Notes under the pieces: generated by a model | Told to the model about the DNA's origin: nothing | Database searches by the model: none | Seen by the model: the letters and a program-made list of their open reading frames with translations, nothing else | Position numbers and translations under genes: made by a program | Assembly: GCF_029227855.1 (NCBI RefSeq) | Contig: NZ_CP074356.1 | DNA length: 64,000 nucleotides | Strand: one strand, 5' to 3' | Source of the DNA: Escherichia coli | Lineage (GTDB): Bacteria > Pseudomonadota > Gammaproteobacteria > Enterobacterales > Enterobacteriaceae | Part shown: positions 19,289 to 47,869 of the stretch, piece by piece | Numbering within the stretch: the stretch's first letter is position 1 | Layout: every line of letters begins with the position of its first letter

Positions 19289-19346
19289 CTCATTGTTTCT
19301 TTTCTGTGTATCACCGTCATCATTCCCATCTGATAACCTATTGAAA

Positions 19347-19790: not shown

Positions 19791-19794
19791 AACG

Positions 19795-20699: not shown

Positions 20700-20701
20700 C
20701 G

Positions 20702-23154: not shown

Positions 23155-23164
23155 TTCCGTTTCT

Positions 23165-25554: not shown

Positions 25555-25565
25555 CTTTCAGCTCC

Positions 25566-25841: not shown

Positions 25842-25844
25842 AGG

Positions 25845-26336: not shown

Positions 26337-26965
26337 GGCACTGACACCAGTGTGGCAAAAACGTCAGGGCTATCAGCGCCTGCGGCGTTGGCCTCATCGG
26401 TATCAATATGCATTTCAAGACGCATATCCGGAGAGACGCGAACAGCGACGTTTTCGAATATCAGTCGTCGCTCACCACCTTCAATGGCAACCGCCACTTT
26501 ATCGCCATGCGTAACGCCATAAATCAGGGCATCCAGCGGAGACATATGAATATGCCGTTGCGCGACAATGACGCCAGATGTGATCTCCAGTTCCGCAAAT
26601 GGGCTTATCAAACGAATCCCCGGAGTGCCGCTGAGATCGCCTGACATGCGTAGCGGGGCGGTGATCCCTAACGTTCTGGCGTCCGTCCGGGAAATTTCCA
26701 CCTGGCTTGCATTGCGTAGCGGCCCCAACAAGCGAACGTTGTGCAATTTGCCTTTTGGTCCCTCCAGCGTAACAACCTGTTCAGCAGCGAATTGGCCAGG
26801 TTGCATTAACGGCTTTTTCTCGCTAATCGGTTGTTCAGGAAAAAGACGCAAATAATCCGCTGTTGAAAGATGAATATGGCGACTGGAAACGCCCAGTGGG
26901 ATAGGGCGCTCGCGCATCTCATCCAGAATCTGGCTCACTGTTTCCTGCAGGGTTTGTTTATCCAC
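26333..26965 (-). CDS. pduL: Phosphate propanoyltransferase PduL
   Basis: 210-aa ORF with duplicated PduL motifs (GVSSRHIHLS..., AQRHIHMSP) and an N-terminal targeting helix. Confidence 0.92.
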   Translation of the reverse strand: MDKQTLQETVSQILDEMRERPIPLGVSSRHIHLSTADYLRLFPEQPISEKKPLMQPGQFAAEQVVTLEGPKGKLHNVRLLGPLRNASQVEISRTDARTLGITAPLRMSGDLSGTPGIRLISPFAELEITSGVIVAQRHIHMSPLDALIYGVTHGDKVAVAIEGGERRLIFENVAVRVSPDMRLEMHIDTDEANAAGADSPDVFATLVSVP

Positions 26966-26967
26966 TG

Positions 26968-27390
26968 CTACTCCCCTCGCTTATTGGCGTACAGGCAAAG
27001 TGAGCGGGGCTCACCTTTTTGCCGCTGACATGCCGGGTCAAGACACAAATTACAACTGATAATCTCTGAGGTGACGGTTGTTGCTGGTGTTTTGCTTGTT
27101 TCAACCGTCACGGTCAATGCTTCAATTGTGTGGGGCAGAATGCCGTCTCCCGGGCGGGCAATCACTTTGTGTGCGACAAGGCCATTTCGCTGTCCGGCGA
27201 AACTGGCTCCCGTCGCGATCGCCGCATTAACCGAGGCGACGTCACCGGTGATTTTGATGAGCGTCCAGCCTGAGCCATTGGTCTTCTCAAGGCCAACCAG
27301 CGTGATGGACGCGGCTTTTGCCATAGCGTCTGCGCAACTGATGGCGAGAGCCAGACCACTGACTTCAAGTAATCCCAGTGATTGCTTCAC
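26968..27390 (-). CDS. pduK: BMC shell protein PduK with Cys-rich C-terminal tail
   Basis: 140-aa ORF with an N-terminal BMC domain (MKQSLGLLEVSGLALAISCADAMAKAA) and the tail CNLCLDPACQRQKGEPRSLC. Confidence 0.9.
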   Translation of the reverse strand: MKQSLGLLEVSGLALAISCADAMAKAASITLVGLEKTNGSGWTLIKITGDVASVNAAIATGASFAGQRNGLVAHKVIARPGDGILPHTIEALTVTVETSKTPATTVTSEIISCNLCLDPACQRQKGEPRSLCLYANKRGE

Positions 27391-27413
27391 GCTGTGCTCC
27401 TTAGCGAATGGGG

Positions 27414-27689
27414 TTATGCTGATTTAGGTAAAATAGCCTCAACATCACTGTGTGGGCGCGGGATGACATGGCAGGATTTCACTTCGCCAACGGCGCTTGC
27501 GGCGGCGCTTCCTGCATCAACGGCGGCTTTTACTGCGCCAACATCGCCACGGACCATCACCGTAATCAGACCCGAACCAATCTTTTCATAGCCAACCAGC
27601 TGCACGTTGGCGGATTTAACCATGGCATCTGCAGCTTCAATTGCGCCAACTAACCCTTTTGTTTCAACCAGTCCTAGTGCGTTGTTCAT
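27414..27689 (-). CDS. pduJ: BMC hexamer shell protein PduJ
   Basis: 91-aa ORF ([41 protein letters not shown]...). Confidence 0.95.
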
Positions 27690-27708
27690 ACTGCATTTCT
27701 CCTGTGGA

Positions 27709-28059
27709 TTATGAGTGGAGTTCCCGGAAGGGAATCCCTTTTACCAGGCGGGCAGCGTTAGAGCCAATGCTGCGCCGGGCATGGTTATCTTGTTGATACA
27801 TCAGCGTAAACAGTGGCGCTGATGCCGGTAAGTTTTTGTAATGCACAATCAGTTTTTCCTGATCGCAGGCAATGCCAACCAACAGGGGAGATTGACTAGC
27901 AGCCAGCCAGGCGCTATCGATAACTTCACCTGACGGAATGTGTTGAATGCGAAAGGGAATACCTTCCTCTTCAATGCCAAGAAGCACCTCATCCCATATA
28001 GTGATGCAGTTACCGATCTCCATGACGACGATGGCTGGTGCACGCTCTTTACTTTCCAT
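27709..28059 (-). CDS. pduH: Diol dehydratase reactivase small subunit
   Basis: 116-aa ORF overlapping the pduG 3' end, in the conserved pduG-H-J position. Confidence 0.9.
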
Positions 28060-29881
28060 GAATCGACTCCTTGTGCCAGGCGATGAGTAGCCCAGTAGCT
28101 ACCGCGTTGCGCGGACCTTCGCTACCACGGATATTCCCCCGTCCGGCGACCAATCGATAATGCGCCAATGCATCGGTGACTAACTGCGGTACTTCGAAAT
28201 CCAGCGAAGAACCGCCCACCAGAACGACGAACGGAATATCGCGAATATTTCCGGCAGGGCTTACCTGACGTAGCGCGCGCAGGGCATTGGTTACGAAGAC
28301 ACGCTCTTTCGCACTGCGGCGGACAGCGCGTACTTTTTCCAGCGTCAAATCACCGGGAATGGGCACCAGTTCGTCGGGTTTCACTACACAGACGCGGGCA
28401 AATACATGGGGGGATAGGGGAGTAGGGAAGAACTGAACGCTGCCATCTTCATGGCGTAAGTGGAACAGGCTTTCTACTTTTGCCAACGGGTACTTTTTGA
28501 TTTCTTCTGCCAGATAACGATCATTTAAGCCCAGCTCACGAGCGATAATCATCGTTACCATGTCGCCCGCTCCCGCAAGGTGAGTGGCAACAATTTCTCC
28601 TTTCTGATTGATGATGGAGGCATCGGTAGAGCCTGCACCTAAGTCCAGAATTGCCAGTGGACGTGTGGTTCCAGGGGTAGTCAAGGCCCCCTGAATGGCG
28701 GCTTCTGCTTCTGCGCCTCCGACCTGAACATCAACATGCAGTTTTTGCTTAATTTCACTGGCGATCATTGCCATTTGCAGACGGTCGGATTTCACCATAG
28801 AGGCAATACCCACAGCCTGTTCCAGTGAAAATTCACCTGCCAGACCGCCGGTTACGCTGACGGGGACAGAGGTATCTATCGCCAGCAAATCCTGAATAAA
28901 AATTTCGTTGCTGGGTTTGTTGGTCAGTTCCGCCATGGTCTGGCGAACATGTTCCAGCATTCCGCCGATGTTGGTGCCTGGTTCTCCCGTCACGTTTTCC
29001 AGTTTTGGGCACTCACCGACCGCTTTCATAATGGCATCGGCACCAGCAGCTACATCAACGCGCGTTGTGCGCCCGGCAGAAAGCAGTTCGATATTTCCGG
29101 CGGGTATCGAACGGGCTTTAACGTCGCCAGAAGGCGTTTTCACTACCACTGCTGAACGGTTGCCGATTAGCGCCCGCGCGACAGGAACAATATTTTTAGT
29201 CTCTTCAGCATTGAGGGCGAAAACGGTGGCAATCCCATACGGGTTAGACAGGGTTTCGATAACTTTCCCGGGAACGGCAACTTCAATTGCAGCCAGCATG
29301 CCGAGCGGAATACGATCGATGTAGAGGACTTCATCAACAATAGGTACAGCAATTTCCAGGCGGTTACTGACCAGCACGCCATCGTCGCGTTGCAGAATAA
29401 CGCCAGTCAGCTGATATCCGGCACGTACGGAGGCGTTTATCATCGTCGCGATATCGGCAAAATCAAATGCCGATGACACCACCAGGATGTAAGGTGTGTC
29501 CGCCGGGCGTGTTAATAACTCTTGCGGAGTGATGGTGAGCCCTACGCCCAGCCCCACTCCGCCCGGAGTTTTCGGGTTGTGACCGATCATGGTTGATTCG
29601 GTGATGATGGTTTCAGTGATGGTTTCCATCGCCACATCACCAATGACCGGAGTTGCTTCGTTGATACGAATAAGCGAAATATCGCTAACATTGATGCCGA
29701 CTTTTTTCGTTGCCTGTGCGAGCGCCTCCTGAATACCATGGACGTTACGCAACGTACCTTTAATTCCGGTGGTTTCCGCCAGGGCGCTACTCACGAACGA
29801 CAACTCTCCAGTTGCACTGAGCGTTGCCAGCGCAACCTCTGTTGATGAGTTGCCGATATCAATGCCTGCTATATATCGCAT
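28049..29881 (-). CDS. pduG: Diol dehydratase reactivase large subunit (ATPase, DdrA-like)
   Basis: 610-aa ORF (MRYIAGIDIGNSSTEVALATL...), actin/HSP70-like ATPase fold. Confidence 0.93.
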   Translation of the reverse strand: MRYIAGIDIGNSSTEVALATLSATGELSFVSSALAETTGIKGTLRNVHGIQEALAQATKKVGINVSDISLIRINEATPVIGDVAMETITETIITESTMIGHNPKTPGGVGLGVGLTITPQELLTRPADTPYILVVSSAFDFADIATMINASVRAGYQLTGVILQRDDGVLVSNRLEIAVPIVDEVLYIDRIPLGMLAAIEVAVPGKVIETLSNPYGIATVFALNAEETKNIVPVARALIGNRSAVVVKTPSGDVKARSIPAGNIELLSAGRTTRVDVAAGADAIMKAVGECPKLENVTGEPGTNIGGMLEHVRQTMAELTNKPSNEIFIQDLLAIDTSVPVSVTGGLAGEFSLEQAVGIASMVKSDRLQMAMIASEIKQKLHVDVQVGGAEAEAAIQGALTTPGTTRPLAILDLGAGSTDASIINQKGEIVATHLAGAGDMVTMIIARELGLNDRYLAEEIKKYPLAKVESLFHLRHEDGSVQFFPTPLSPHVFARVCVVKPDELVPIPGDLTLEKVRAVRRSAKERVFVTNALRALRQVSPAGNIRDIPFVVLVGGSSLDFEVPQLVTDALAHYRLVAGRGNIRGSEGPRNAVATGLLIAWHKESIHGK

Positions 29882-29890
29882 AGTTCGTCC

Positions 29891-30409
29891 TTAATCGTCG
29901 CCTTTCAGTTTTTTGCGCTCGACATAAAGTTCCGCAGCTTCACGGACAAATGCAGCACAAATTTTGGCCTGATAACGCCGTTCAAGATCGTCAGCAATGG
30001 CAATAAGTTCTTGCTTAGTCGAACGATAAGGGCGTAACGCATTGTAGATTTCGAGGATGCGATCATCCGGTACTGAGGTAAGCTCAGCGGCGCGTTCAAA
30101 ATTCATCGCCAGGCGATCGCGACCAGCATCTCTGGCAATCGCGGCCTGAATACGCAATGTTTCAGGGGTTATACGCATATCCTGGGCGGTGACGTTATCG
30201 CTGAGTACATTTTCCAGAGTGAAATCGTCGAGCGTTTTATTGGTCGCCGTTTTAACCCATTCCGGATGTTTATTTGCCAGCGGATAATCCGTCACTTTGG
30301 CGCTCTGTATTGACGCGTTGGGTGCCGCAGAAACAGGAGCTGCATCCTGTAAACTGTTCATGCGATTCAACACGTCCCTGACCATCGACTCAATTGCATC
30401 GGTATTCAT
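29891..30409 (-). CDS. pduE: B12-dependent diol dehydratase small (gamma) subunit
   Basis: 172-aa ORF (MNTDAIESMVRDVLNRMNSLQ...) in the pduC-D-E order. Confidence 0.93.
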   Translation of the reverse strand: MNTDAIESMVRDVLNRMNSLQDAAPVSAAPNASIQSAKVTDYPLANKHPEWVKTATNKTLDDFTLENVLSDNVTAQDMRITPETLRIQAAIARDAGRDRLAMNFERAAELTSVPDDRILEIYNALRPYRSTKQELIAIADDLERRYQAKICAAFVREAAELYVERKKLKGDD

Positions 30410-30423
30410 GAAGGTTTCCTTTG

Positions 30424-31092
30424 TTAAAACGTCACGCGCAGTTCTTGCGGTTTTTTGCCAGTGACCACGTACTTCGTCTCTTTAATATGCAAAATGGCAG
30501 ATTTGGCCTGGTATTTCGGCCGCGCCATTTGATCGTTGAGGGTCGGCACCGGTTGTGGAGACTCACGCTTTGCATAACGCGCGGCGTTTTTGCCAATCTG
30601 ACGATAAGTTTCCAGCGTCAACAAAGGCGCTTGTGGGAATAGTTCCAGGTTAGACAAGGGAGGAAGACCTTGCTGGTGGATAACCGTTGTGCCTTTCGAC
30701 TGAATACCGATAGCAATACCTGAACCACTAAGACGATCGCCTTCGACTGCTACGAATGCGACATCGGACGATTTAAAGCAGCGAATCACACGGGCTTTAA
30801 TGCCTTCTTCTTCGATACCAGCAATCACTTCGCGCAAGATGTTTTTATGCGGAATACCGATGATATTGACGGTTTGCGCCAGGCCGAACGCCGGGCCTAC
30901 AGCAATAATGACTTCATCTTGCTGAGTGCCTTGTTGGGCTTCGCCAATTTCGGCCAGAAAAGTTCCGGTATCTGGCGCGGAAGAGACAGTTGCACAGGCA
31001 GGTGCGCGAAATGAAACGGGCTTGTCGCTGGTTTGCATTTCTGCCAGCACGTCTTCGATAATCTGACGCAGTAATTTTTCGTTAATTTCCAT
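30424..31092 (-). CDS. pduD: B12-dependent diol dehydratase medium (beta) subunit
   Basis: 222-aa ORF with an N-terminal encapsulation helix ([19 protein letters not shown]). Confidence 0.93.
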
Positions 31093-31101
31093 TTCTCACC
31101 C

Positions 31102-32766
31102 TTAGTCAATTTCGTTGGGATCAAGTGCACCGGGAATATTTTTGATCTCTTCCCAGCGTTCCCCTTGCAGGCGGTAACCTGTAGCCGGTCCGGCGTAATC
31201 ATTGACGTCATTGACCGCAGAGAGCACTTGTCCGTCATCGACGATGATGGCTGAGGTATGGAGATAATCGCCGGTCAGTTTTGCTTTTTGCATGTTGAGC
31301 ATGTCTTGGGCGACATCGGTAAAACCGCCTTGCGCCAGGGCTTTCACCACTTCCAGGCTGTTCCGGTTTTTATTGATAATCTCCTGGGCGAACTTGATGT
31401 CTTCCACAATATTGCGCTCAGGCATATCTTTTGAACCGTGGGCATAGGTTGCCGCTTCGACTTCTTCATCGGTAATAGGCGGTAGTCCCATACCGGCAAA
31501 GACAGCCTGTAAAGCGCGAGCGGCTTTATTGCGGATAGCGATAACATCTTCTTCGCGTACTGGTCGCAGGCCGCCATCAACCTTCAGGTCACGCTGAATG
31601 ACGTTGTAATCATCGAAGTCTTCAGCATCTTCGTTTGAACCAGCAAACATGTTGTCGTAGTTCGGCACAGCGGAAAAACCGGAAGAGATAAAGTCGGTAC
31701 CTGGCAGAAACTGCATCAGGAAACGTGCGGTACGGCGCATATCCGAGTGGGTAAAGGTCTGGTCATTACTGGAGGCGCATTCCAGATCCAGCGATGAGCA
31801 AATTAAGTTTTCCGCTAATACTGCGCGGATGCCTGATGGCACAGCCGATGGAACACCGATGCAGCTTACCGAACCATTCTGTAGACCCTGAACTCCTGCG
31901 GCTTTGGTGATGTAAATGCAACGAGCCTCGAGATAAAGCATTGATTTGCCTTCCGCGTAACCCATCTGTACTTCAGAGCCGGAGCCGGAAGTAAAGCGCA
32001 TTTTTAAGCCGCGAGACGCATAGGATGACGCGAGAAATCCTTTTGACCACGGGGTGTCATCGCCATCGGTGAAAACAGGTTCTGTACCATAGACAGAAAT
32101 TGTTTCGGCGTAACAGGTGTGGCCTAACATACCGAGTTTCAGTTCGGTGGCTTCTTCCAGTGAACACTGGGTCAAGACGCCCGGACGTCCCACCTGTGAG
32201 CCGACCAGCAGGGCGATGGCGTTGAACGGGGCATAGCGAGCAACGGCAACGGTGGTTTCCTGTTCATCAAACCCGCGCCATGCGCCTTCAGCTGCGTCGG
32301 CGGCAATTTGTACCGGGTTATCTTTGACGTTGGTGACGTGAGCCTGTTGTGATGGTGTTCGACGGGCGCGCATTTTCTGCATCGCCATCATCATCTCTAC
32401 CACGTTCATCTGCGAAACAACTTCGACGATTTTTGCAGGCGTCATTGCTGTGGTAAGGGGAACGATATCGCTACGTTTGACATTTGGATCGCACAACATA
32501 TTGGCAAGTTTTACCGAATCCATCGCGATGACTTCTTCTGCACGCGCGAGATTGATGCCGTAGCGGGCGATAAAGTGGTCGATCAGGTCAAACTGGCTGG
32601 CGGGTTTTCCATCCAGTTCGGTAACGACGCCGTTAACAATTTTGATTGACGGTTTAGGATCGTTCGGGCTTTCCATCGCAATGAAGCCTTCTTCAATCCA
32701 CTCTTTAACGAAACCGTCCTGGTTGACCGGGCGTTTTGCCAGTGCTTCAAATCTTTTCGATCTCAT
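31102..32766 (-). CDS. pduC: B12-dependent diol dehydratase large (alpha) subunit
   Basis: 554-aa ORF (MRSKRFEALAKRPVNQDGFVKEWIEEGFIAMESPNDPKPSIK...). Confidence 0.96.
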   Translation of the reverse strand: MRSKRFEALAKRPVNQDGFVKEWIEEGFIAMESPNDPKPSIKIVNGVVTELDGKPASQFDLIDHFIARYGINLARAEEVIAMDSVKLANMLCDPNVKRSDIVPLTTAMTPAKIVEVVSQMNVVEMMMAMQKMRARRTPSQQAHVTNVKDNPVQIAADAAEGAWRGFDEQETTVAVARYAPFNAIALLVGSQVGRPGVLTQCSLEEATELKLGMLGHTCYAETISVYGTEPVFTDGDDTPWSKGFLASSYASRGLKMRFTSGSGSEVQMGYAEGKSMLYLEARCIYITKAAGVQGLQNGSVSCIGVPSAVPSGIRAVLAENLICSSLDLECASSNDQTFTHSDMRRTARFLMQFLPGTDFISSGFSAVPNYDNMFAGSNEDAEDFDDYNVIQRDLKVDGGLRPVREEDVIAIRNKAARALQAVFAGMGLPPITDEEVEAATYAHGSKDMPERNIVEDIKFAQEIINKNRNSLEVVKALAQGGFTDVAQDMLNMQKAKLTGDYLHTSAIIVDDGQVLSAVNDVNDYAGPATGYRLQGERWEEIKNIPGALDPNEID

Positions 32767-32784
32767 AAATCTGCCTCAGAGAAT

Positions 32785-33597
32785 TCAGATGTAGGAAGGG
32801 CGATCGTTTTTCGGTGTATCGCCGAGAGTCGAAAGCACGGTTTTACCGATTTCGCGTGCGGAGATGACCGCCTGGCGGACTGCGCCGGAGTCACCCGAGA
32901 TAATCAGAATGACTTCATTGCTGTAGCTGGTGCCTTGAGCGGGGGAGCTGTATGCCACAACATCCACATTGGCGGACTTCAGCGCGGTGTCTGCCATCAG
33001 AACACCCACAGCAGCCGGAGCGCCGACAATAACGCCGCAAGCCCGTCCCAATGGTGCACCAAACGCTTTTTCCAGTGCATAGCTGGCGCGGGCGGTATAT
33101 TGCAGCTCAAGATGTCCGGCTTCGTTGGCATAGACATCGCCAAAGGTTCGATCGAGTTCTTTCAGGGCAACTTCAATACCGCGTTTCACGTCGGAAACAT
33201 CGTTGCCACCTAAGAGGATCAATGAGCCGTGTCCGGCACCGCCTTTAGTATCGCGAGGAAGTTCAATGCTAATAACTTCAGTGTTGGTGGCTTTTACCGC
33301 TTCATCAGCGGCCATAATGTGTGGACCTGCGCCAATACGCGCACCCAGAATGCCAATGGAACGATAGCGTTTTTCAAGTTTCATTGCGTCCAACAGGGCG
33401 CTATCAACGTTCGCAATGACCAGACCTACAGTGTCGCCAATAGCGGTGCCAACAAATTCTGTTAATGTGCAGCTTTTTTCTGCCATAGCCGTCTCTCGTA
33501 TTTGATGAGTGGTTTTCGGGAGAACCTCATGCTCTGGCGTCGCTACGCGAGCGATGACCTGCGCCATGATCTGTTCGACCAGTTCATTGCTGCTCAT
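32785..33597 (-). CDS. pduB: Tandem-BMC trimer shell protein PduB
   Basis: 270-aa ORF. An internal Met ([13 protein letters not shown]) sits where Salmonella makes the shorter PduB' isoform. 4-nt overlap with pduA. Confidence 0.93.
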
Positions 33598-33878
33598 GGG
33601 TTAATTCCCTTTGGTAAGATTTTTTCGACATCGGTATGTGGGCGGGGAATAACATGTACGGCTTTTACTTCGCCGACGTTACGCGCAGCTGCGGCACCTG
33701 CGTCTGTTGCCGCTTTTACCGCCCCGACATCACCACGAACGATGACGGTCACCAGCCCGGAACCTATTTTTTCGTAGCCGACCAGCAAAACATTTGCCGA
33801 CTTCACCATGGCGTCTGCGGCCTCTATGGCGGCAGTTAAGCCTTTGGTTTCTACCATTCCTAACGCTTCTTGTTGCAT
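33594..33878 (-). CDS. pduA: BMC hexamer shell protein PduA, first gene of the pdu operon
   Basis: 94-aa ORF ([42 protein letters not shown]...). Confidence 0.96.
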
Positions 33879-35199: not shown

Positions 35200-35401
35200 C
35201 GAAATAATCTGGCAGTTATAAACGTTTATTTTTTTACTGTTTGTGATCTGCTTTCCGAACTTATTAAAAAGTCTCCCGCTTCATGGAGGCTTTTGTTATT
35301 GTCCTTTGTGCTTCTCGTCAGTAAATCATCAGGGATGATGTGAAGATTAAATGTAAAACAATTGTTTTGCTATAACAATAAATTAACTGGGAGGTTTTAT
35401 C

Positions 35402-36316
35402 ATGATTTCTGCGGCGACACTTAATTCAGAACTCATTAATAAAATCGCGCAGGATTTTGCGCAGGCGACCAGCCTTGCGGTTGTCGTGGTCAATATTCAC
35501 GGCGATGAAATTTCCGAGCTGTTTAACTTCACTCCATTTTGTCAGATGATGCGGCAACACCCTCAGCTAAGCACTCGATGTCGCATGAGCGATCGTTGTG
35601 GGGGCCTGGAAGCCTCTAAATCCGATCAGCCTTGTATTTATCGCTGTCATGCCGGATTAACCGATTTCTCTATTCCACTGGTAATCGCCGGGCATTTAGT
35701 CGGTTTTGTATTGTGCGGGCAAGTTCGTCTGCGTAATGATGATGTCGATTTGGTCGATATTCTGAATGTCGATGATTGCTGGCAGGCAGATCCCGAATTA
35801 CTTAATGAATTCCGCAAAGTTCCTGAGATGGATTACTCAAGAGTTATGGCCTCTGCTGATTTGTTGAAGTTGATTGTGGAAAATTGCCTCAAAAAACAAC
35901 TCAATTTTGTGGTTATTAAAGAGAACAAATTTCAGTCAGATTCGGTGCGCCAGACTCGTGCGCCTAATCCCCACGACAATAAAATGAAAAAAGCTTTACG
36001 CTATATTGATGCGCATTTATCAGACGATTTGCGTCTGGAAGATGTCGCCTCGCACGTTTATCTAAGTCCTTATTATTTCAGTAAGTTATTCAAGAAATAC
36101 CATGGAATCGGTTTTAATGCGTGGGTAAACCAACAACGGATGGCCAGCGCTCGTGAGTTACTGTGCCATAGTGACTGGAGCATCGCCAGTATTGCGCGTA
36201 ATTTAGGTTTTTCGCAAACCAGTTATTTTTGCAAAGTTTTCCGTCAGACTTATCAGGTTACGCCGCAGGTGTATCGACAGCAAGTGAGTGAAAATGCGGT
36301 GATGGAAACGGTATAG
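35402..36316 (+). CDS. pocR: AraC-family activator of pdu/cob, PocR
   Basis: 304-aa ORF with an N-terminal PocR sensory domain and a C-terminal AraC HTH (YFSKLFKKYHGIGFNAW...SQTSYFCKVFRQ). Confidence 0.92.
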   Translation: MISAATLNSELINKIAQDFAQATSLAVVVVNIHGDEISELFNFTPFCQMMRQHPQLSTRCRMSDRCGGLEASKSDQPCIYRCHAGLTDFSIPLVIAGHLVGFVLCGQVRLRNDDVDLVDILNVDDCWQADPELLNEFRKVPEMDYSRVMASADLLKLIVENCLKKQLNFVVIKENKFQSDSVRQTRAPNPHDNKMKKALRYIDAHLSDDLRLEDVASHVYLSPYYFSKLFKKYHGIGFNAWVNQQRMASARELLCHSDWSIASIARNLGFSQTSYFCKVFRQTYQVTPQVYRQQVSENAVMETV

Positions 36317-36424
36317 AGTAAATGCCCCAAAAAAAGAGGACGGTTTAAATAAACTCTGCAATGAATAATTAACGTTATTTACCTGTTATGGGAAAAGTGA
36401 AATCAGCTCATAACATACGCTGAC

Positions 36425-36600
36425 AGGTGTGGCACATTTGTGCCTGGGAAGAGGGTGAAAATCCCTCGCAGCCCCCGCTGCTGTAATGCTGACAAACCCG
36501 AAAATGCCACTGATCGCGAGATTGGGAAGGTCGGGAGAGGATGACGCTAAGCCAGAAGACCAGCCAGTCAGTCAATACCAACAACTTCGGTGGGAAGTGG
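36425..36600 (+). promoter_or_regulatory. Cobalamin (AdoCbl) riboswitch of the former cob/cbi operon leader
   Basis: Conserved core strings GGGAAGAGGGTGAAAATCCCTCGCAGCCCCCGCTGCTGTAA, GCCACTG...GGGAAGG and a B12 box AAGCCAGAAGACCAGCC (36549-36565). Confidence 0.8.
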
Positions 36601-36800
36601 GTTGCCCGGAAGCGTCCGGTAGAGTACCGGCGCGTCTTTATACCCCTACCACCCTGAAAGGATCAGGGTATGGCGGCATCATTTAGTTCTTTCATCGCAG
36701 TGCCGACAGGCACCAGGGCTGCACTTAAGGTGTGGCAATCTTGTTTCATGGCTCATCAACCAGACCGCCATTACAGGAAACTAAGTGGAGGGCGAGAGGC

Positions 36801-37238
36801 ATGAAAACGATAAAACCCGAATCGATAGCTCTTTTTTGCCTCTTATCTGGAGATGTGGATCTGGCGAAACATTTGGCTGAAATATTGCCAATAACTTGTT
36901 TTGTTGGTGAGGACTGGCAGCAAGATTTCCAGCCTCTTGACGGTGGGCCTGTGCAATCGTTATCAGATGTGTATGGCGATTATTCAGTGCTGCTATTGAT
37001 AGCAGCTGAAAGCGAGATATCCGTACCAGAATGGCTCGCTCATTCTGAAGGAACGACGGTAATTGTGATTGCAGAACACAATACCCGTTTGCTGACTGGT
37101 CCGGCTGGTGGGGCTGTAGCATTGATCCATTATCTGAATGAAATCTGTCATTCCAGAGAAACCGCTGTCAATGACGCATTTTGTCGTACGTTAACACGAG
37201 GAAGTCTGGCTATTCCGCAATGCCATCTTCTTTCGTAA
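36801..37238 (+). CDS. Hypothetical 145-aa protein; possible diverged relic of a cbi gene (CbiG N-terminal-like?)
   Basis: An ATG with an SD (ggagggcgagaggcATG) sits where Salmonella carries cbiA-cbiP. The strings SIALFCLLSGDVDLAKHLAEILP and GPAGGAVALIHYL are reminiscent, from memory only, of the CbiG N-terminal domain. Confidence 0.35.
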   Translation: MKTIKPESIALFCLLSGDVDLAKHLAEILPITCFVGEDWQQDFQPLDGGPVQSLSDVYGDYSVLLLIAAESEISVPEWLAHSEGTTVIVIAEHNTRLLTGPAGGAVALIHYLNEICHSRETAVNDAFCRTLTRGSLAIPQCHLLS

Positions 37239-37371
37239 TGGATTGAGAATGCTGGATTTTTAATTATATTACGCGCAGTATTAATCGCGTAAATGTTTTG
37301 CGGTCAGCAACGGTGGGGGATCCATTGTTCTGTTCAATGAATACCATCATACAATTGAATCAGGAGTCGGT

Positions 37372-37917
37372 ATGATGATTTTGGTGACAGGTGGAGCACG
37401 GAGCGGGAAGAGTCGCCACGCAGAGGCGCTTATTGGGGACTCTTCACAGGTTCTGTATATCGCCACCTCGCAAATCCTTGATGATGAGATGGCTGCACGG
37501 ATAGAACATCATCGGCAAGGCCGCCCGGCGCACTGGCGCACGGTGGAGCGCTGGCAACATCTTGATGAATTAATTCATGCAGACATTAACCCGCATGAAG
37601 CTGTGTTGCTGGAATGCGTTACAACAATGGTGACTAATCTGTTGTTTGATTATGGCGGCGATAAAGACCCTGATGAATGGGATTATCAGGCGATGGAACA
37701 GGCGATTAATGCTGAGATTCAGTCGTTGATTGCTGCCTGCCAACGTTGCCCCGCGAAGATTGTATTAGTGACTAACGAAGTGGGAATGGGGATTGTGCCG
37801 GAGAGTCGTCTGGCACGACATTTTCGTGATATTGCCGGGCGGGTAAATCAGCAGCTGGCCGCTGCGGCAAATGAAGTGTGGCTGGTGGTTTCGGGTATTG
37901 GAGTAAAAATCAAATGA
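37372..37917 (+). CDS. cobU: Adenosylcobinamide kinase / adenosylcobinamide-phosphate guanylyltransferase
   Basis: 181-aa ORF with a P-loop ([10 protein letters not shown]). Confidence 0.95.
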
Positions 37918-38657
37918 GTAAATTATTTTGGGCGATGCTCTCTTTTATTACGCGTCTGCCTGTGCCGCGTCGCTGGTCCCAGGGACTGGATTTCGAGCAT
38001 TATTCTCGCGGTATTATTACTTTTCCTTTAATTGGTTTATTGCTTGGCGCGATTAGCGGGCTGGTCTTCATGGCGTTGCAGGCATGGTTTGGCGTACCAC
38101 TGGCGGCACTGTTTAGCGTGCTGGTGCTGGCGCTGATGACCGGGGGATTCCACCTGGACGGCCTCGCCGATACCTGTGATGGCGTATTTTCTGCACGTAG
38201 CCGCGATCGCATGTTGGAAATCATGCGTGATAGCCGTTTAGGCACCCACGGCGGTCTGGCATTGATTTTTGTTGTACTGGCAAAGATTCTGGTGTTAAGC
38301 GAGCTGGCTTTGCGTGGCGAACCGATCCTTGCATCGCTGGCGGCAGCATGCGCGGTCAGCCGCGGGACTGCCGCATTATTGATGTATCGTCATCGTTATG
38401 CCCGGGAAGAAGGACTTGGCAATGTGTTCATTGGCAAAATTGATGGGCGACAAACCTGCGTCACACTCGGCTTAGCCGCTATTTTTGCTGCCGTATTATT
38501 GCCGGGTATGCATGGTGTGGCTGCTATGGTGGTGACGATGGTGGCGATTTTCATCCTCGGTCAGCTTCTCAAACGTACGCTGGGCGGGCAAACCGGCGAT
38601 ACGCTGGGAGCAGCCATAGAGCTTGGTGAACTGGTCTTCCTGCTGGCACTGCTATAA
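37914..38657 (+). CDS. cobS: Cobalamin 5'-phosphate synthase
   Basis: The Met at [18 protein letters not shown] gives a 247-aa membrane protein. ATGA overlap with cobU. Confidence 0.94.
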
Positions 38658-38668
38658 AGAGACGTGAC

Positions 38669-39748
38669 ATGCAAATACTTGCCGATTTACTGAATACGAT
38701 CCCAGCCATCGATCCTACCGCTATGTCGCGTGCACAACGGCATATTGACGGGTTACTCAAACCTGTTGGTAGCCTGGGAAAGCTGGAGGCGCTTGCCATA
38801 CAACTGGCGGGAATGCCGGGGTTGAATGGCATACCGCATGTGGGCAAAAAAGCGGTACTGGTTATGTGTGCCGATCACGGCGTCTGGGAGGAAGGGGTCG
38901 CTATTTCCCCAAAAGAAGTGACAGCCATTCAGGCTGAAAATATGACCCGCGGAACAACCGGCCTGTGTGTGCTGGCAGCACAAGCGGGCGCTAACGTCCA
39001 CGTAATTGATGTTGGTATTGATACTGCTGAGCCTATCCCCGGGCTTATCAACATGCGTGTCGCACGAGGTAGCGGCAATATTGCTTCAGCTCCGGCAATG
39101 AGTCGCCGTCAGGCTGAAAAGTTGTTTTTGGACGTCATATGTTATACGCGGGAGCTGGCAAAAAACGGTGTCACGCTGTTTGGTGTAGGTGAACTGGGGA
39201 TGGCAAACACGACACCGGCAGCGGCAATAGTCAGCACAATCACTGGCCGGGATCCTGAAGAAGTGGTTGGGATTGGCGCAAACCTGCCGACAGATAAACT
39301 GGCTAATAAAATTGATGTTGTGCGTCGGGCGATTACGTTGAATCAACCAAATCCTCAGGATGGTGTTGATGTCCTGGCAAAAGTGGGTGGATTTGATTTG
39401 GTCGGAATAGCTGGAGTGATGTTAGGTGCTGCTTCCTGCGGTTTACCCGTGTTGCTGGATGGATTTCTTTCTTATGCTGCTGCGCTCGCAGCCTGCCAGA
39501 TGTCTCCTGCAATCAAACCGTATCTCATTCCTTCTCACTTGTCGGCAGAAAAAGGCGCGCGTATAGCGCTGTCGCATTTGGGGCTGGAGCCTTATCTCAA
39601 TATGGATATGCGTTTAGGTGAGGGGAGTGGTGCAGCTCTGGCGATGCCCATCATCGAAGCTGCTTGTGCGATATACAACAACATGGGCGAACTTGCTGCC
39701 AGTAATATTGTTCTACCGGGGAATACGACTTCTGATTTGAACAGTTAA
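38669..39748 (+). CDS. cobT: Nicotinate-nucleotide:dimethylbenzimidazole phosphoribosyltransferase
   Basis: 359-aa ORF ([40 protein letters not shown]...). Confidence 0.95.
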
Positions 39749-39812
39749 AAACGAAAAGTCTGATAAAAGCTATACTTAACCGATAGCTTTCGCGACTTAG
39801 GAAAGGGACATG

Positions 39813-40745
39813 ATGCGTCGTGTAAATATTTTTTGCTCATTTGCTCTACTTTTTGCCAGCCATAATAGCCTGGCGGTAACTTATCCATTACCTCCAGAGG
39901 GTAGCCGTTTAGTGGGACAGTCGCTTACTGTAACTGTTCCTGATCACAATACCCAGCCGCTGGAGACTTTTGCCGCACAATACGGGCAAGGGTTAAGTAA
40001 CATGCTGGAAGCGAATCCGGGCGCTGATATTTTCTTGCCGAAGTCAGGCTCGCAACTCACCATTCCGCAGCAACTGATTTTGCCCGCCACTATTCGTAAA
40101 GGGATTGTGGTTAACGTCGCTGAGATGCGTCTTTATTACTACCCACCAGACAGTAATTCTGTGGAAGTCTTTCCTATTGGTATCGGCCAGGCTGGGCGAG
40201 AAACCCCGCGTAACTGGGTGACTACCGTTGAACGTAAACAAGAAGCACCAACCTGGACGCCAACGCCGAACACCCGGCGCGAATATGCGAAACGAGGGGA
40301 GAGTTTGCCCGCATTTGTTCCTGCGGGGCCTGATAATCCCATGGGGCTGTATGCGATTTATATTGGCAGGCTATATGCCATCCACGGTACCAATGCCAAT
40401 TTTGGTATTGGGCTCCGGGTAAGTCAGGGCTGTATTCGTCTGCGCAATGACGATATCAAATATCTGTTTGATAATGTTCCTGTAGGTACTCGTGTACAAA
40501 TTATTGATCAGCCAGTGAAATACACAACGGAACCGGATGGATCAAAGTGGCTGGAAGTTCATGAGCCGCTGTCGCGCAATCGTGCTGAATATGAGTCTGA
40601 CCGAAAAGTGCCATTGCCGGTAACCCCATCTTTGCGGGCGTTTATCAACGGGCAAGAAGTTGATGTGAATCGCGCAAATGCTGCGTTGCAACGTCGATCG
40701 GGAATGCCTGTGCAAATTAGTTCTGGTTCAAGACAGATGTTTTAA
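39813..40745 (+). CDS. ldtA: L,D-transpeptidase (Braun lipoprotein attachment), ErfK/LdtA
   Basis: Signal peptide, a YkuD domain with HGT...SQGCIRL, 310 aa from the second Met. Confidence 0.93.
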
Positions 40746-43209: not shown

Positions 43210-43285
43210 TGGCTCCTCTGACTGGACTCGAACCAGTGACATACGGATTAACAGTCCGCCGTTCTACCGACTGAACTACAGAGGA
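43210..43285 (-). tRNA. asnU: tRNA-Asn (anticodon GUU)
   Basis: 76 nt identical to asnV. Confidence 0.98.
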
Positions 43286-43301
43286 ATCGCTGTTGAGGCA
43301 C

Positions 43302-43329
43302 ATCTTAACGGCGAAAAATCTTTTGTCAA
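43302..43329 (-). promoter_or_regulatory. asnU sigma70 promoter
   Basis: The minus strand has TTGACA, a 16-nt spacer and TAAGAT. Confidence 0.6.
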
Positions 43330-43445
43330 ACCCGATTTTTAAATTTCCCAACTGTTTGCCGTTTCTATCAACAGTTTGTTGCATTTGCAGACAATTTGTT
43401 GGCGAAAATCTTTGCAGCTTTGCTGATTCTCCCTCATTATTTGAA

Positions 43446-44933
43446 ATGTGGTTTCACTTTCTGCAATTAAGGTCGGCTTTGAATATCTCCTCTGCTTTAC
43501 GCCAGGTTGTTCACGGCACTCGCTGGCACGCTAAACGCAAGAGCTACAAAGTGTTGTTCTGGCGCGAGATAACCCCGCTTGCTGTTCCTATCTTCATGGA
43601 GAACGCCTGTGTCCTGTTGATGGGTGTCCTGAGCACTTTTCTGGTCAGCTGGCTGGGAAAAGATGCGATGGCCGGCGTGGGATTGGCGGACAGCTTCAAT
43701 ATGGTCATTATGGCATTTTTTGCGGCTATCGATCTTGGTACCACTGTCGTTGTGGCATTTAGTCTCGGTAAGCGGGATCGACGACGAGCGAGGGTGGCGA
43801 CGCGGCAGTCATTGGTGATCATGACGTTGTTTGCCGTGCTGTTGGCAACGCTTATTCATCATTTTGGCGAACAAATTATTGATTTCGTTGCGGGTGATGC
43901 CACGACAGAAGTTAAAGCACTGGCGTTGACTTATCTGGAGCTGACGGTACTTAGTTATCCAGCAGCTGCCATCACTTTGATTGGTAGCGGGGCACTTCGT
44001 GGTGCAGGGAATACGAAAATACCGCTACTGATTAACGGTAGCCTGAATATTCTTAATATTATTATTAGCGGCATATTGATTTACGGCCTTTTCTCCTGGC
44101 CGGGACTGGGATTTGTCGGGGCTGGGTTGGGGTTAACCATTTCTCGTTATATTGGCGCAGTTGCAATTTTGTGGGTGCTGGCGATTGGTTTTAATCCTGC
44201 GCTAAGGATTTCGTTAAAGAGCTATTTTAAACCGCTGAATTTTAGCATTATCTGGGAAGTCATGGGGATTGGTATTCCAGCAAGTGTCGAATCAGTATTA
44301 TTTACCAGTGGTCGGTTATTAACCCAAATGTTCGTTGCCGGGATGGGGACCAGTGTTATTGCCGGAAATTTTATCGCGTTTTCAATTGCGGCTCTTATCA
44401 ACTTACCCGGAAGTGCGCTCGGCTCTGCTTCTACGATCATTACAGGCCGAAGGTTGGGAGTAGGGCAGATAGCGCAAGCAGAGATTCAGTTGCGGCATGT
44501 GTTCTGGCTGTCCACTCTTGGATTAACGGCCATCGCCTGGCTAACGGCTCCCTTTGCCGGGGTTATGGCATCGTTTTACACCCAGGATCCACAGGTTAAA
44601 CATGTCGTTGTGATTCTGATTTGGCTAAATGCTTTATTTATGCCTATTTGGTCTGCCTCATGGGTGCTACCCGCTGGATTTAAGGGTGCTCGCGATGCAC
44701 GTTACGCCATGTGGGTTTCTATGTTGAGCATGTGGGGTTGCCGGGTTGTAGTCGGTTATGTGCTGGGAATCATGCTTGGCTGGGGTGTGGTTGGTGTCTG
44801 GATGGGAATGTTTGCCGACTGGGCTGTGCGGGCCGTGCTGTTTTACTGGCGAATGGTTACTGGACGTTGGCTGTGGAAATATCCTCGATCTGAGCCGCAA
44901 AAGTGTGAAAAAAAGCCAATTGTGTCGGAATAA
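43446..44933 (+). CDS. yeeO: MATE-family efflux transporter YeeO
   Basis: The Met at MWFHFLQLRSALNISS gives 495 aa and 12 TM helices. The 546-aa track ORF would start inside the asnU promoter, so the shorter start is preferred. Confidence 0.88.
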   Translation: MWFHFLQLRSALNISSALRQVVHGTRWHAKRKSYKVLFWREITPLAVPIFMENACVLLMGVLSTFLVSWLGKDAMAGVGLADSFNMVIMAFFAAIDLGTTVVVAFSLGKRDRRRARVATRQSLVIMTLFAVLLATLIHHFGEQIIDFVAGDATTEVKALALTYLELTVLSYPAAAITLIGSGALRGAGNTKIPLLINGSLNILNIIISGILIYGLFSWPGLGFVGAGLGLTISRYIGAVAILWVLAIGFNPALRISLKSYFKPLNFSIIWEVMGIGIPASVESVLFTSGRLLTQMFVAGMGTSVIAGNFIAFSIAALINLPGSALGSASTIITGRRLGVGQIAQAEIQLRHVFWLSTLGLTAIAWLTAPFAGVMASFYTQDPQVKHVVVILIWLNALFMPIWSASWVLPAGFKGARDARYAMWVSMLSMWGCRVVVGYVLGIMLGWGVVGVWMGMFADWAVRAVLFYWRMVTGRWLWKYPRSEPQKCEKKPIVSE

Positions 44934-44986
44934 ACGACAAAGTGCAGATTATTTCAGCAAACGATTTCAAATTTAAAAAACAGGCT

Positions 44987-45015
44987 TTGACATTGTGGAT
45001 GGGCATCGCTAATAT
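44987..45015 (+). promoter_or_regulatory. asnW sigma70 promoter
   Basis: TTGACA (44987-92), a 17-nt spacer and TAATAT (45010-15), then a GC-rich discriminator. Confidence 0.75.
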
Positions 45016-45033
45016 TCGCCTCGTTCTCACGAT

Positions 45034-45109
45034 TCCTCTGTAGTTCAGTCGGTAGAACGGCGGACTGTTAATCCGTATGTCACTGGTTCGAGTCCAGTCA
45101 GAGGAGCCA
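45034..45109 (+). tRNA. asnW: tRNA-Asn (anticodon GUU); integration target of the island
   Basis: 76 nt identical to asnV/asnU. Its 3' 16 nt form part of the island direct repeat. Confidence 0.98.
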
Positions 45110-45113
45110 AATT
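45094..45113 (+). repeat. attL direct repeat (tRNA 3' end)
   Basis: CCAGTCAGAGGAGCCAAATT. Confidence 0.9.
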
Positions 45114-45270
45114 CAAGTTTTCATGCTTATCTGTACGTCTCTATTTGTTTACGATTCAGTAAGTTAGCGTGAAAATCCTTCCCGGTGCGTATCTGGTTTT
45201 CTCTCTGTATCGGGATAATTTGGTGGTCAGATCTGGGGTCAGTTTGGTTCGATTCTGGAGTGACCCCCAA

Positions 45271-46532
45271 ATGTCTTTAAACGATTCTAAAATCCGCAAG
45301 TTAAAACCCTCTTCCCGTCTGGTAAAACTCTCCGACTCTCACGGTCTGTATCTGCTCGTCAATCCGGGCGGTTCACGCATCTGGTATCTCAAATATCGTT
45401 TCAACGGAAAAGAATCCAGAGTCAGTCTTGGCGCATACCCGCTTGTCTCACTGGCAGAAGCCAGGCAACAGCGCGACGGTATCCGTAAGTTACTGGCGCA
45501 GAATATCAACCCGGCGCAGCAGCGCATGGCGGAGAAAGCGGCCTGCTCCCCTGAAAAGTGCTTTAAGGCAGTGGCGCTGGCCTGGCACAAAACCAACAAA
45601 AAATGGTCGGCTGATTATGCCGCCCGTATTCTCGCCAGTATGGAAAACCATATCTTCCCGGCGATTGGTCATCTGCCAGTTGCCACTCTTAAAACGCAGG
45701 ATTTACTGCTTTGTTGCGGGTTATCGAGGATAAAGGCTTTCTGGAAGTCGCGTCCCGAACCCGGCAGCAACTCAGCAACATCATGCGCTATGCCGTTCAG
45801 CAGGGGCTTACCGAAAGCAATCCGGCGCAGCATCTGGATGGCGTTGTCGCCTCACCCGTAAAGAATCACTACCCCGCGTTACTGCTGGAGCGGTTGCCCG
45901 AACTGCTTGGCCGCATCGGTGACTATCAGCAGGGCCGGGAGTTAACACGGCTGGCGGTGGTGCTGACGTTGCACCTGTTTATCCGTTCCAGCGAACTGCG
46001 TTTCGCCCGCTGGAGCGAGATCGATTTCAGGCACAAAATCTGGACCATCCCCGCCACCCGCGAGGCAATCGACAAAGTACGGTTTTCGGGGCGTGGCGCA
46101 AAAATACGTACCCCGCATATCGTGCCGCTCTCCCGCCAGGCGATTGCCATTCTGAAACAGATACAGGAGCTTTCCGGCCATCTGGATCTGGTGTTTCCCG
46201 GTGATCATAACCCGTACAAGCCAATGAGTGAAAACACCACCAACCGGGCGCTACGCCTGATGGGGTATGATACGAAAACTGAAATCTGCGGGCATGGACT
46301 CAGGGCGATGGCCTGTAGCGCCCTGGTGGAGTCGGAGCTGTGGTCACGCGATACGGTGGAGCGGCAAATGAGCCACCAGGAGCGTAACAGCGTGCGGGCA
46401 GCCTATGTGCATAAAGCGGAGCATCTGGAGGCCAGAAAGGCCATGATGCAGTGGTGGTCGGATTATCTGGATGTGTGCCGCGAGGGGTATGTTGCGCCGT
46501 ACATTTATGCCCGGCAGCATAAGGCAGCCTGA
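45271..46532 (+). pseudogene. int: P4-type tyrosine integrase, disrupted by a 1-nt frameshift near 45706-45710
   Basis: The N-terminal part (MSLNDSKIRKLKPS...LKTQDLL) is in frame 1. The continuation (LLRVIEDKGFLEVASR...HGLRAM...RAAYVH) is in frame 3. Joining needs one extra base. The catalytic HxxR and Y are present downstream. Confidence 0.85.
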
Positions 46533-46568
46533 ATCAGAAATAACGGAAATCATTAAAAATGTAAAAGC

Positions 46569-46594
46569 AGATCCTGATTGACCGGGATCTGCTT
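46569..46594 (+). terminator. Hairpin after the integrase gene
   Basis: agcagatcc-tgattgacc-gggatctgct. The T tract is weak. Confidence 0.4.
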
Positions 46595-46737
46595 ATTGTA
46601 TTGAGAAGTATTACCATTTTTCTGTTATTATCAATCGGAAAGTATCTAAAAATATTTGGCCCCAAATAATTTTGGTGAAAACCAATCAATAAACCATTTA
46701 TCAATAGGTAAGTACCGGAAATTATTCCAGTAGAATA

Positions 46738-47092
46738 TTTTCAGGCGATTGCCTATTAATAAATACATTATTGATAGATAAGTGCCTTCTGTGATTTGTC
46801 CGCAAATCACAGAAGATGAAAACCTATCAATACGGGATATTTTCACGGAAATACCAATTAATACTCCAGAATATCTCCTGACCATATACTCTGAAACCTG
46901 TAAGAACTGCATCAGATATTGAGAGACCATATAGATATAAGTCTGAAATTATTTTGTTTCCAATGATTTCAGGCGAAAACCTATCAATGCATCTGTTTTC
47001 AATAGGCAGCCACCTTCCGTGATTAACATGTTAATCACGGAAGGTGAAAAGCTATCAATAATCGATATTTTCACGGAATTACCACTTAATAC
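46738..47092. repeat. Two diverged ~127-bp tandem units (46738-46864, 46967-47092; period ~229 bp), each centred on a 30-32-bp palindrome
   Basis: Both units start with tttcaggcga and end with gatattttcacggaaNtaccaNttaatac. Palindrome A is cttctgtgatttgtccgcaaatcacagaag (46786-46815). Palindrome B is the perfect 32-mer ccttccgtgattaacatgttaatcacggaagg (47013-47044). Confidence 0.85.
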
Positions 47093-47688
47093 ATCCCAAA
47101 AAATGCGCCATAAAATACCGGGCAATCTTTCCTGATACACATTATCACTGCACCAGCTATACAGAGACAAAATAATCTGCACCAGCCCCTGTAAATCGGT
47201 TATTTGTGCCAGTGTCCCGCCGCTCTACCTGTTCAGGGTTGTGCCAGTTTCTGGCCCTTTGGTTTTCGGCCCTTTCCGGTCAGGCGCTGTTACCCTTATT
47301 GCCCCTTAACCTTTATGACCCTTTCCCTTTCTGACGCAACCAGTTTATTTTGAAATGCTCCATGACAGTCTGCACCAGACTGTATTTTCACCACAGGATA
47401 ACGATCACAAAGTGCAAAAAAATAACATGAAGCACCGAAGATTGTTAATCTATATGTAGCAGGTAATGATGTCAAAAACTGTCGCAGCATTTTTTATAAA
47501 ATTATGAGACATTCTGTGGGCATATAATATATGTCACAAGATGCAGGAAAACAAAGAGAGAGTTTTCAGATATAATCCTGCGTTAGAATTAATGTGATGC
47601 CCCGGTGAATTTACATTTTAAAATTTCCCTGTCCCGTAATATCGGTAAAAACGATTGAAACACCAACTATTAATCGGGAACGTCTCGA

Positions 47689-47707
47689 GTGATTACAGGG
47701 TAATCAC
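47689..47707. repeat. Third GTGATTA...TAATCAC palindrome
   Basis: gtgattac-agg-gtaatcac shares half-sites with the palindromes at 46786 and 47013. Confidence 0.7.
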
Positions 47708-47869
47708 TATAATATCCCGGCAAACTATATTGGTTAAGCAGGAGAATCTGATCAGTTGATATTTATTCGTCATGCTGTAACGATATTTTCACAATATAAA
47801 CCCGTTCGCCCCCTGCGCCAGATCCGGTACAGAGGGTACGATAAATCGCTGTCGTTACGCAGTAACGTA

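Follow-up and report, generated by a model that had tools for sequence, protein, structure and literature searches.

The window analysed here is a 64,000-nt stretch of the Escherichia coli chromosome that carries, downstream of the regulatory gene pocR, an adenosylcobalamin (AdoCbl) riboswitch followed by two short open reading frames (ORFs), termed ORF44 and ORF145 after their lengths in codons, and by the cobU, cobS and cobT genes (cobUST). A first-pass annotation had described this segment as a cobalamin (B12) riboswitch left behind in front of a locus that has lost its cbi operon. On the evidence reviewed below, the segment is probably the scar that ancient deletions left of a Salmonella-type cob operon, a scar common to the whole genus, and would still operate as a regulatory unit. 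The riboswitch itself is known and is already present in the RefSeq annotation, where ORF145 is called a ‘hypothetical protein’ or ‘cobalamin biosynthesis protein’; what is new is its re-use ahead of a deletion scar that contains a relic ORF under selection, and full-text literature searches found no paper describing the riboswitch-relic-cobU arrangement. If correctly interpreted, the locus provides a natural example of a riboswitch that has outlived its operon and that selection has preserved in front of new cargo. It would also offer propanediol-using E. coli, pdu-positive gut pathotypes among them, a testable means of adjusting B12 salvage to supply, and it would encode a small protein, confined to the genus, that descends from an enzyme domain.

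Organization of the locus

On the + strand, the elements that follow the pdu operon are, in order, pduF, pocR, the riboswitch, ORF44, ORF145, cobU, cobS, cobT, and ldtA, and everything from pocR through cobT is co-directional. The pdu operon is complete from pduA to pduV and lies on the - strand in the region 16500-33878. The pocR gene (35402-36316, + strand) encodes a propanediol-responsive AraC-type activator (NCBIfam NF047788, TransRegPocR, 553 bits; Pfam PocR and HTH_AraC) and is separated by a 91-nt spacer (36317-36407) from the riboswitch aptamer (36408-36582), which is followed by its expression platform (36583-36669), ORF44 (36670-36804) and ORF145 (36801-37238), all on the + strand. 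Beyond them lie the nucleotide-loop assembly (salvage) genes cobU (37372-37917; Pfam CobU, 216 bits, and NCBIfam), cobS (37914-38657) and cobT (38669-39748), also on the + strand, the last two placed from the RefSeq annotation of strain NRZ14408, whose sequence does not differ from the window (100% identity) over the 1.3 kb queried (36200-37500). The distance from the 3′ end of the aptamer to the cobU ATG is 789 nt, in agreement with the gap of about 0.8 kb given in the first-pass annotation, although the single ORF placed there has to be replaced by two conserved ORFs of 44 and 145 codons.

The riboswitch and its expression platform

The Rfam covariance model RF00174 matches the aptamer over its full length (model positions 1-189 of 189) with a significant score of 109.4 bits (gathering threshold 31.5; E = 1.7e-26), and the B12 box AAGCCAGAAGACCAGCC at 36549-36565 aligns to the consensus GCCAGGAGACCuGCC; the AdoCbl riboswitch and B12 box recognised downstream of pocR at first reading are thereby confirmed. 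Orthologous aptamers from six other Escherichia loci, E. fergusonii included, score 105.6-112.9 bits, and those of Salmonella and Citrobacter score 106.9 and 108.8 bits, respectively. When the expression platform is aligned across Salmonella and six Escherichia lineages, the string AACAACTTCGGTGGGAAGTGGGTT hardly varies; the platform terminates in a 7-bp hairpin formed by ACCCTGA (36651-36657) and TCAGGGT (36663-36669), the loop of which holds the Shine-Dalgarno sequence AAGGA. The last base of this ribosome-binding site (RBS) hairpin, 36669, directly precedes an ATG at 36670 with the start sequence ATGGCGGCA. In an RNAalifold consensus the pairs of the RBS hairpin are retained in six to seven of the seven sequences; the platform is linked to the downstream start codon, and there is almost no variation in the hairpin and ATG between Salmonella and any of the Escherichia.

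In Salmonella, the cob leader acts by sequestration of the RBS at cbiA, with polarity on the downstream genes. The Salmonella enterica leader occupies the orthologous position directly after pocR and shares 82.5% nucleotide identity with window positions 36404-36678, from the aptamer through cbiA codon 3, and there is no difference in the B12 box, the AACAACTTCGGTGGGAAGTGGGTT element, the RBS hairpin, or the ATGGCGGCA start. Sequence comparison thus supports the window riboswitch as the ortholog of the Salmonella leader, and it would be expected to bind AdoCbl and to respond by controlling gene expression. The two leaders differ in what they head, which in Salmonella is a 17-kb cbiA-cbiP-cobUST operon, whereas here it is about 0.7 kb of relic ORFs and cobUST. 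That the cob operon is under riboswitch control has been stated in general terms (PMC5282855). The leaders also differ in the pocR-aptamer region, which in Salmonella is approximately 245 nt longer than the 91 nt of the window, so that the Salmonella promoter and 5′ leader region have no recognisable counterpart in the window. A conserved motif, GTTATGGG, is common to the spacers of the window and Salmonella. No leader promoter was located by a promoter scan and by alignment of the pocR-aptamer spacer with Salmonella, and a terminator scan revealed no + strand terminator-like site 3′ of pocR.

ORF44, ORF145 and the deletion scar

The remains of the lost genes were traced against two reference operons located through PocR and CbiK look-ups, namely the complete operon of S. 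enterica (pocR, cbiA-cbiP, cobUST, ldtA) and that of Citrobacter amalonaticus, the latter to the end of the fetched locus. ORF44 starts at the ancestral cbiA ATG, and its first ~15 residues resemble the N-terminus of CbiA (MAA....FI...TG; shuffling p about 0.02); a similarity of ORF44 to the C-terminus of CbiF was also considered and was not significant by shuffling. The TGA of ORF44 overlaps the ATG of ORF145 as ATGA (36801-36804). In six lineages ORF44 has an unbroken frame of exactly 135 nt and the ATGA overlap is likewise retained; this conserved stop-start overlap suggests that translation of the two ORFs may be coupled. The E. fergusonii counterpart of ORF44 is ORF49, which ends at the ancestral cbiF stop, AAGCCTGA, and overlaps ORF156, the counterpart of ORF145, by 20 nt, the same overlap as between Salmonella cbiF and cbiG; nearly all listed members of the cluster are 156 aa long.

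The first-pass annotation had noted that the 145-aa ORF loosely recalls the N-terminal domain of CbiG, and this resemblance proved well founded. The NCBIfam model for enterobacterial CbiG, NF004463, matches ORF145 residues 1-118 at model positions 1-125 of 351 (E = 5.9e-19), the score of 68.4 bits being below the family cut-off of 546. Residues 1-112 (36801-37136) align with residues 1-119 of Salmonella CbiG at 43% identity (E = 6e-21) and with Citrobacter CbiG at 45%. Like CbiG (cobalt-precorrin-5A hydrolase), ORF145 retains the hydrophobic core and the GGA..L..YL motif; it differs in that the parental motif SGHAGGAN has been degraded to TGPAGGAV and in that the middle and C-terminal domains are missing. 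Salmonella CbiG is a protein of ~350 aa with CbiG_N, CbiG_mid, and CbiG_C domains at residues 54-134, 140-219, and 231-347, and the alignment stops at about CbiG residue 119-125, after which ORF145 continues into an unrelated 33-residue tail (37137-37238). ORF145 is therefore supported, by sequence, as a diverged N-terminal fragment of CbiG; it is not a CbiG enzyme. AlphaFold2 (AF2) gave one confident model out of five (mean predicted local distance difference test score 74); the predicted fold matches 3eeq_B, of the solved CbiG homolog 3EEQ, and may be that of the CbiG N-terminal domain. A sequence search of the Protein Data Bank with an ORF145 profile returned only chance matches.

A profile search of 1.84 billion representative sequences yielded 35 matches, among which the short form is confined to Escherichia. 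Candidate stand-alone CbiG_N proteins from outside the genus were rejected, the short matches inspected being frameshifted or truncated versions of real CbiG. Also rejected was an antisense ORF of 113 aa in E. coli (36781-37122), which is not conserved in other species. In all Escherichia lineages, a purine-rich, Shine-Dalgarno-like stretch (GGAGG...GAGAGG; 36783-36800) precedes the ORF145 ATG, and this stretch is absent before cbiG in Salmonella and Citrobacter, where the ATG is preceded by CTTTAGCC; the comparison suggests that the relic may have acquired an RBS of its own.

The translated cbiG match begins 27 nt 5′ of the ORF145 ATG, inside the old cbiF 3′ end. At the far side of the scar, a remnant of the last ~11 codons of cbiP (37341-37375, + strand) carries the Shine-Dalgarno sequence of cobU, AGGAG. 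By blastn, window positions 37343-37496 match positions 15495-15648 of the Salmonella locus with 76% nucleotide identity, covering the last ~29 nt of cbiP and then cobU; the remnant peptide aligns with Salmonella YTIMQQHQEPV*, and the ancestral cbiP TGA overlaps the cobU ATG. Two deletions explain the scar: the first took out cbiA from about codon 15 onward, together with everything through to almost the end of cbiF, and the second began near codon 120 of cbiG and spared only the last ~11 codons of cbiP. Two segments, 36679-36773 (~95 nt) and 37137-37340 (~200 nt), have no match when all Escherichia versions are compared with the Salmonella and Citrobacter operons by blastn and tblastx.

Loss of the cbi genes themselves extends well beyond the window. 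In a blastn search in distant mode, none of 5,426 complete E. coli genomes, NRZ14408 included, matched Salmonella cbiA-cbiB, cbiC-cbiF, cbiH-cbiM, or cbiN-cbiP, which upholds the earlier statement that the whole cbi operon is gone and that only cobUST is left. The scar shows that a pdu-pocR-cbi-cob cluster of the Salmonella type stood at this chromosomal site in the Escherichia ancestor. Amino-acid identities between E. coli and Salmonella across window 35402-40745 are 89% for PocR, 81% for CobU, 83% for CobS, and 77% for CobT, compared with 78% for the flanking core gene product LdtA; a divergence similar to that of ldtA, together with the same gene order, agrees with the whole cluster having descended vertically in place. 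An older view holds that the Salmonella operon came from outside, and the scar is relevant to the long-standing idea of ‘loss and reacquisition’ of cob and pdu in enteric bacteria.

Distribution in E. coli and across Escherichia

The full stretch from pocR through the riboswitch, ORF44 and ORF145 to cobU is present in 643 of the 5,426 complete E. coli genomes, and nearly all of the others match its cobU-proximal part only. The same layout is found in E. ruysiae, E. marmotae, two further Escherichia lineages, and E. albertii. In E. fergusonii (locus positions 10001-12130), pdu, pocR, the riboswitch (112.9 bits), ORF49, and ORF156 are followed by ldtA, cobUST having been cleanly deleted. Both E. 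albertii genomes examined (positions 3436-4876 and 969-2380 of their loci) have an intact riboswitch (112.8 bits) and both ORFs intact; cobU is in out-of-frame pieces and cobT is deleted. Judged from these comparisons, the scar is ancient and common to every Escherichia species sampled. The first-pass annotation had framed the loss as a property of the strain, and it is indeed present in the window strain, but the state is genus-wide and not a strain-level loss.

Escherichia coli K-12 has the same cobU, cobS, cobT, and ldtA at the same locus; it differs in that IS5 has taken the place of the region from pdu and pocR through the riboswitch and ORF44 to the first two-thirds of ORF145. There, IS5 abuts the last 144 nt of ORF145, which are annotated as a ‘cobalamin biosynthesis protein’ pseudogene, and since K-12 lacks the riboswitch, riboswitch input is impossible in that strain. 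An avian pathogenic E. coli strain has insertion sequence debris at the position of the K-12 IS5, and another strain carries a clean deletion that fuses a pduV fragment to the middle of ORF145. Across pdu-less E. coli, homology to the window begins at 36898, 36906, 37067, 37103, 37112, 37184, or 37232 or, in a rarer class, at 37385 inside cobU, beside an ISL3 transposase. The pdu-less forms, K-12 included, derive from the riboswitch-bearing form by further deletion.

Several other observations were made in the course of this survey. E. fergusonii PocR is 88% identical to E. coli PocR, compared with 96-97% for E. albertii and E. marmotae, a divergence which indicates that the E. fergusonii locus is unusually divergent or has been exchanged. 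In E. albertii, cobS is intact, with a dN/dS of 0.02 and a dS of 1.28 relative to E. coli, far above the pocR dS of 0.49; by these estimates cobS and cobU of this species present an odd mixture of decay and strong constraint. A scan of genome contigs with the locus returned Escherichia loci and three apparently contaminated assemblies only. The latter contain contigs that are 85-98% identical, in a ‘Veillonella parvula’ metagenome-assembled genome, in Xenorhabdus szentirmaii DSM 16338, and in Alkalicoccobacillus porphyridii; one of the three is a 262-nt contig at 0.8x coverage, and contamination is the most likely source of these matches.

Conservation and selection

With the window as reference, identity to five other Escherichia lineages is 92-95% for the aptamer and 91-95% for the expression platform, compared with 90-93% for pocR and 89-90% for cobU in four lineages (78% for the fragmented cobU of E. 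albertii). The corresponding values are 73-82% for ORF44, 81-86% for the CbiG-derived part of ORF145 and 72-77% for its tail; the ORF145-cobU spacer is better conserved than the tail. The pocR-aptamer spacer is 77-81% identical, with indels, in four of the five lineages and 96% identical in the remaining one (L012). Indels occur in the flanking spacers, and the 569 nt of ORF44 and ORF145 contain a single 3-nt indel, ORF145 being 144-145 codons long in six lineages. Over the ORF145 interval, the ORF145 frame alone is free of stops in seven of seven lineages, and every other frame contains 2-13 stops. Neutral evolution was simulated by placing substitutions on the observed tree of six lineages (0.615 substitutions per site, indels ignored, 20,000 runs); ORF145 remained open in all six lineages in 2e-4 of the runs, ORF44 in 0.02, and both together in 0 of 20,000.

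Selection on the encoded peptides was assessed by maximum likelihood under a codon model, with omega tested against 1 by twice the difference in log likelihood (2dlnL). For ORF145, omega is 0.50 (2dlnL 32.0) with seven taxa, E. fergusonii included, and 0.57 (2dlnL 15.7) with six; codons 1-113 give 0.51 (2dlnL 15.5), and the tail gives 0.72 (2dlnL 1.5), not different from 1, both with six taxa. For ORF44 omega is 0.75 (2dlnL 1.1; six taxa), again not different from 1, and the comparable values are 0.18 (2dlnL 92.6; five taxa) for cobU and 0.058 (2dlnL 393.4; six taxa) for pocR. The Nei-Gojobori ratio for ORF145 is 0.42 in frame vs 0.75-0.79 in two off-frame controls. Together, the open-frame simulation and the omega results indicate that both frames have been kept open by selection. 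The CbiG-derived part of ORF145 is under weak purifying selection at the amino-acid level, and ORF44 and the tail are not; the relic is maintained rather than decaying. Of the two fates originally suggested for ORF145, a pseudogene fragment or a re-purposed small protein, a neutrally decaying pseudogene is disfavoured by these results.

These data also bear on the idea that riboswitch and ORFs alike are an inert relic, non-functional and not yet decayed. Such an origin might be read from the 42-45% identity of ORF145 to either CbiG vs 93% between the CbiG N-termini of Citrobacter and Salmonella, from the lack of a Pfam match, and from the loss of the region from most E. coli. It is nevertheless very unlikely, given that aptamer and platform are better conserved than the neighbouring protein-coding genes, that covariance scores are undiminished in seven lineages, that the neutral chance of both ORFs remaining open is below 5e-5, that omega is significantly below 1, and that indels are found in the flanking spacers and, apart from the one of 3 nt, not in the ORFs.

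A different use of the same frames is that they serve as spacer only, being held open for ribosome cover so that PocR- and riboswitch-controlled transcription can reach cobUST without termination by Rho, with the peptides themselves idle. Consistent with this are the omega values of ORF44 and of the ORF145 tail, neither of which differs from 1, the co-directional genes without a terminator, the degradation of SGHAGGAN to TGPAGGAV, and the disappearance of both ORFs whenever pdu and pocR are deleted. We regard this explanation as rather unlikely, since the omega of ORF145, significantly below 1 in its CbiG-derived codons, implies selection on amino acids and not merely against stop codons, and since E. 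fergusonii keeps the riboswitch, ORF49, and ORF156 without cobUST, as E. albertii keeps its module with a broken cobU.

It can also be proposed, tentatively, that ORF145 is no relic but has been domesticated as a small, Escherichia-specific, CbiG_N-derived protein. B12 would repress it by way of the riboswitch, with ORF44 as the relay, and it may work with the Pdu system, perhaps to retain salvaged corrinoids or to pass them on. Were this so, riboswitch and ORF would be kept together wherever pdu is kept, even in the absence of cobU or of the whole of cobUST.

Regulatory reach of the riboswitch

According to the deletion-scar reading favoured here, the unit that remains comprises an intact AdoCbl riboswitch with a Salmonella-type, RBS-sequestering platform, ORF44, ORF145, and cobUST. 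At low AdoCbl, the hairpin over the Shine-Dalgarno sequence would be open and ORF44 translated; ribosomes that finish ORF44 at the ATGA would re-initiate on ORF145, and the translated RNA would escape Rho, so that transcription could continue into cobUST. With AdoCbl bound, the RBS would be sequestered and the cassette switched off, along with the share of cobUST expression that is due to read-through. A basal promoter of their own would remain to cobUST, to which read-through would add a B12-repressed, probably PocR-linked input where these genes are present. Like these steps, any activity of the predicted ORF145 protein is putative.

Control of cobUST by the riboswitch is the least firm element of this account. 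A terminator scan of the aptamer-to-cobU interval found no convincing intrinsic terminator, and two hairpins, at 36718-36736 inside ORF44 and at 37269-37292, were rejected as terminators because their folding energies are no better than those of shuffled sequences and their arms are not conserved. The Salmonella mechanism, RBS sequestration with polarity, would at this locus extend to whichever genes come next, and B12 riboswitch control of cobUST is no more than plausible.

A number of findings weigh against the deletion-scar unit as a working system. A promoter-like site (TTGAGA-16-TATATT; 37243-37270, + strand) with 10 of 12 consensus matches lies directly 3′ of the ORF145 stop and upstream of cobU, and is a candidate cobU-proximal promoter; its -35 hexamer is kept in five of six aligned Escherichia lineages (not in E. 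albertii), and all of the common pdu-less deletion classes spare the ORF145-cobU spacer in which it lies. As K-12 has the cobU-proximal stretch only, cobUST must have one or more promoters of its own, and the leader is dispensable for cobUST, since in 88% of complete E. coli genomes the riboswitch has been deleted together with most of ORF145, yet cobUST persists. Retention of the module follows pdu and pocR rather than cobUST, and the riboswitch and ORFs of E. fergusonii, without cobUST, and of E. albertii, with its fragmented cobU and deleted cobT, mean that control of cobUST cannot be the sole reason for keeping the module. As for ORF145, a functional protein would be expected to have an omega lower than 0.5, the confident AF2 model was only one of five, and the Pfam scan gave no family, and no CbiG_N match, at E <= 1.

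Co-occurrence with pocR and pdu rather than with cobUST could also be taken to mean that the riboswitch now serves pdu regulation, for example through a leader RNA that acts on pocR or pdu expression. Non-coding RNAs controlled by B12 riboswitches act in this way in Listeria and Enterococcus. The module occurs in E. fergusonii and E. albertii, neither of which has a working cobU, and is lacking from the pdu-less E. coli that retain cobUST. This role is very improbable, however, in that the riboswitch lies 3′ of pocR and co-directional with it, and hence is not antisense, and in that its platform, translational in type as in Salmonella, leads into an ATG and ORF that are conserved; loss together with pdu would be expected from adjacency alone. 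Physical adjacency accounts for part of the co-retention of the module with pdu and pocR.

Neighbouring features

The pduF-pocR spacer contains a match to the Rfam small RNA STnc230 (71 bits; 35258-35341, - strand), antisense to the direction of pduF and pocR, which is kept in all of the Escherichia, Salmonella-group, and Citrobacter loci scanned. At the far end of the E. coli pdu operon, pduV is the last gene and adjoins tmaR, in the window (16500-33878, - strand) and in locus L001 (3148-17679). The Salmonella pdu operon runs from pduA to pduX, ending with pduW (propionate kinase) and pduX (L-threonine kinase, a step of B12 synthesis). Taking this gene content as the reference, pduW and pduX would presumably be missing from the pdu operon of the window, and loss of pduX, if so, would accord with B12 no longer being made de novo. 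On the other side of the salvage genes, 3′ of cobT-ldtA, positions 43213-50192 contain three tRNA-Asn genes, frameshifted integrases, an EFASI RNA (100.8 bits; 48543-48670), and a C4 antisense RNA (62 bits; 50104-50192), and this region looks like an island-insertion hotspot with remnants of mobile elements.

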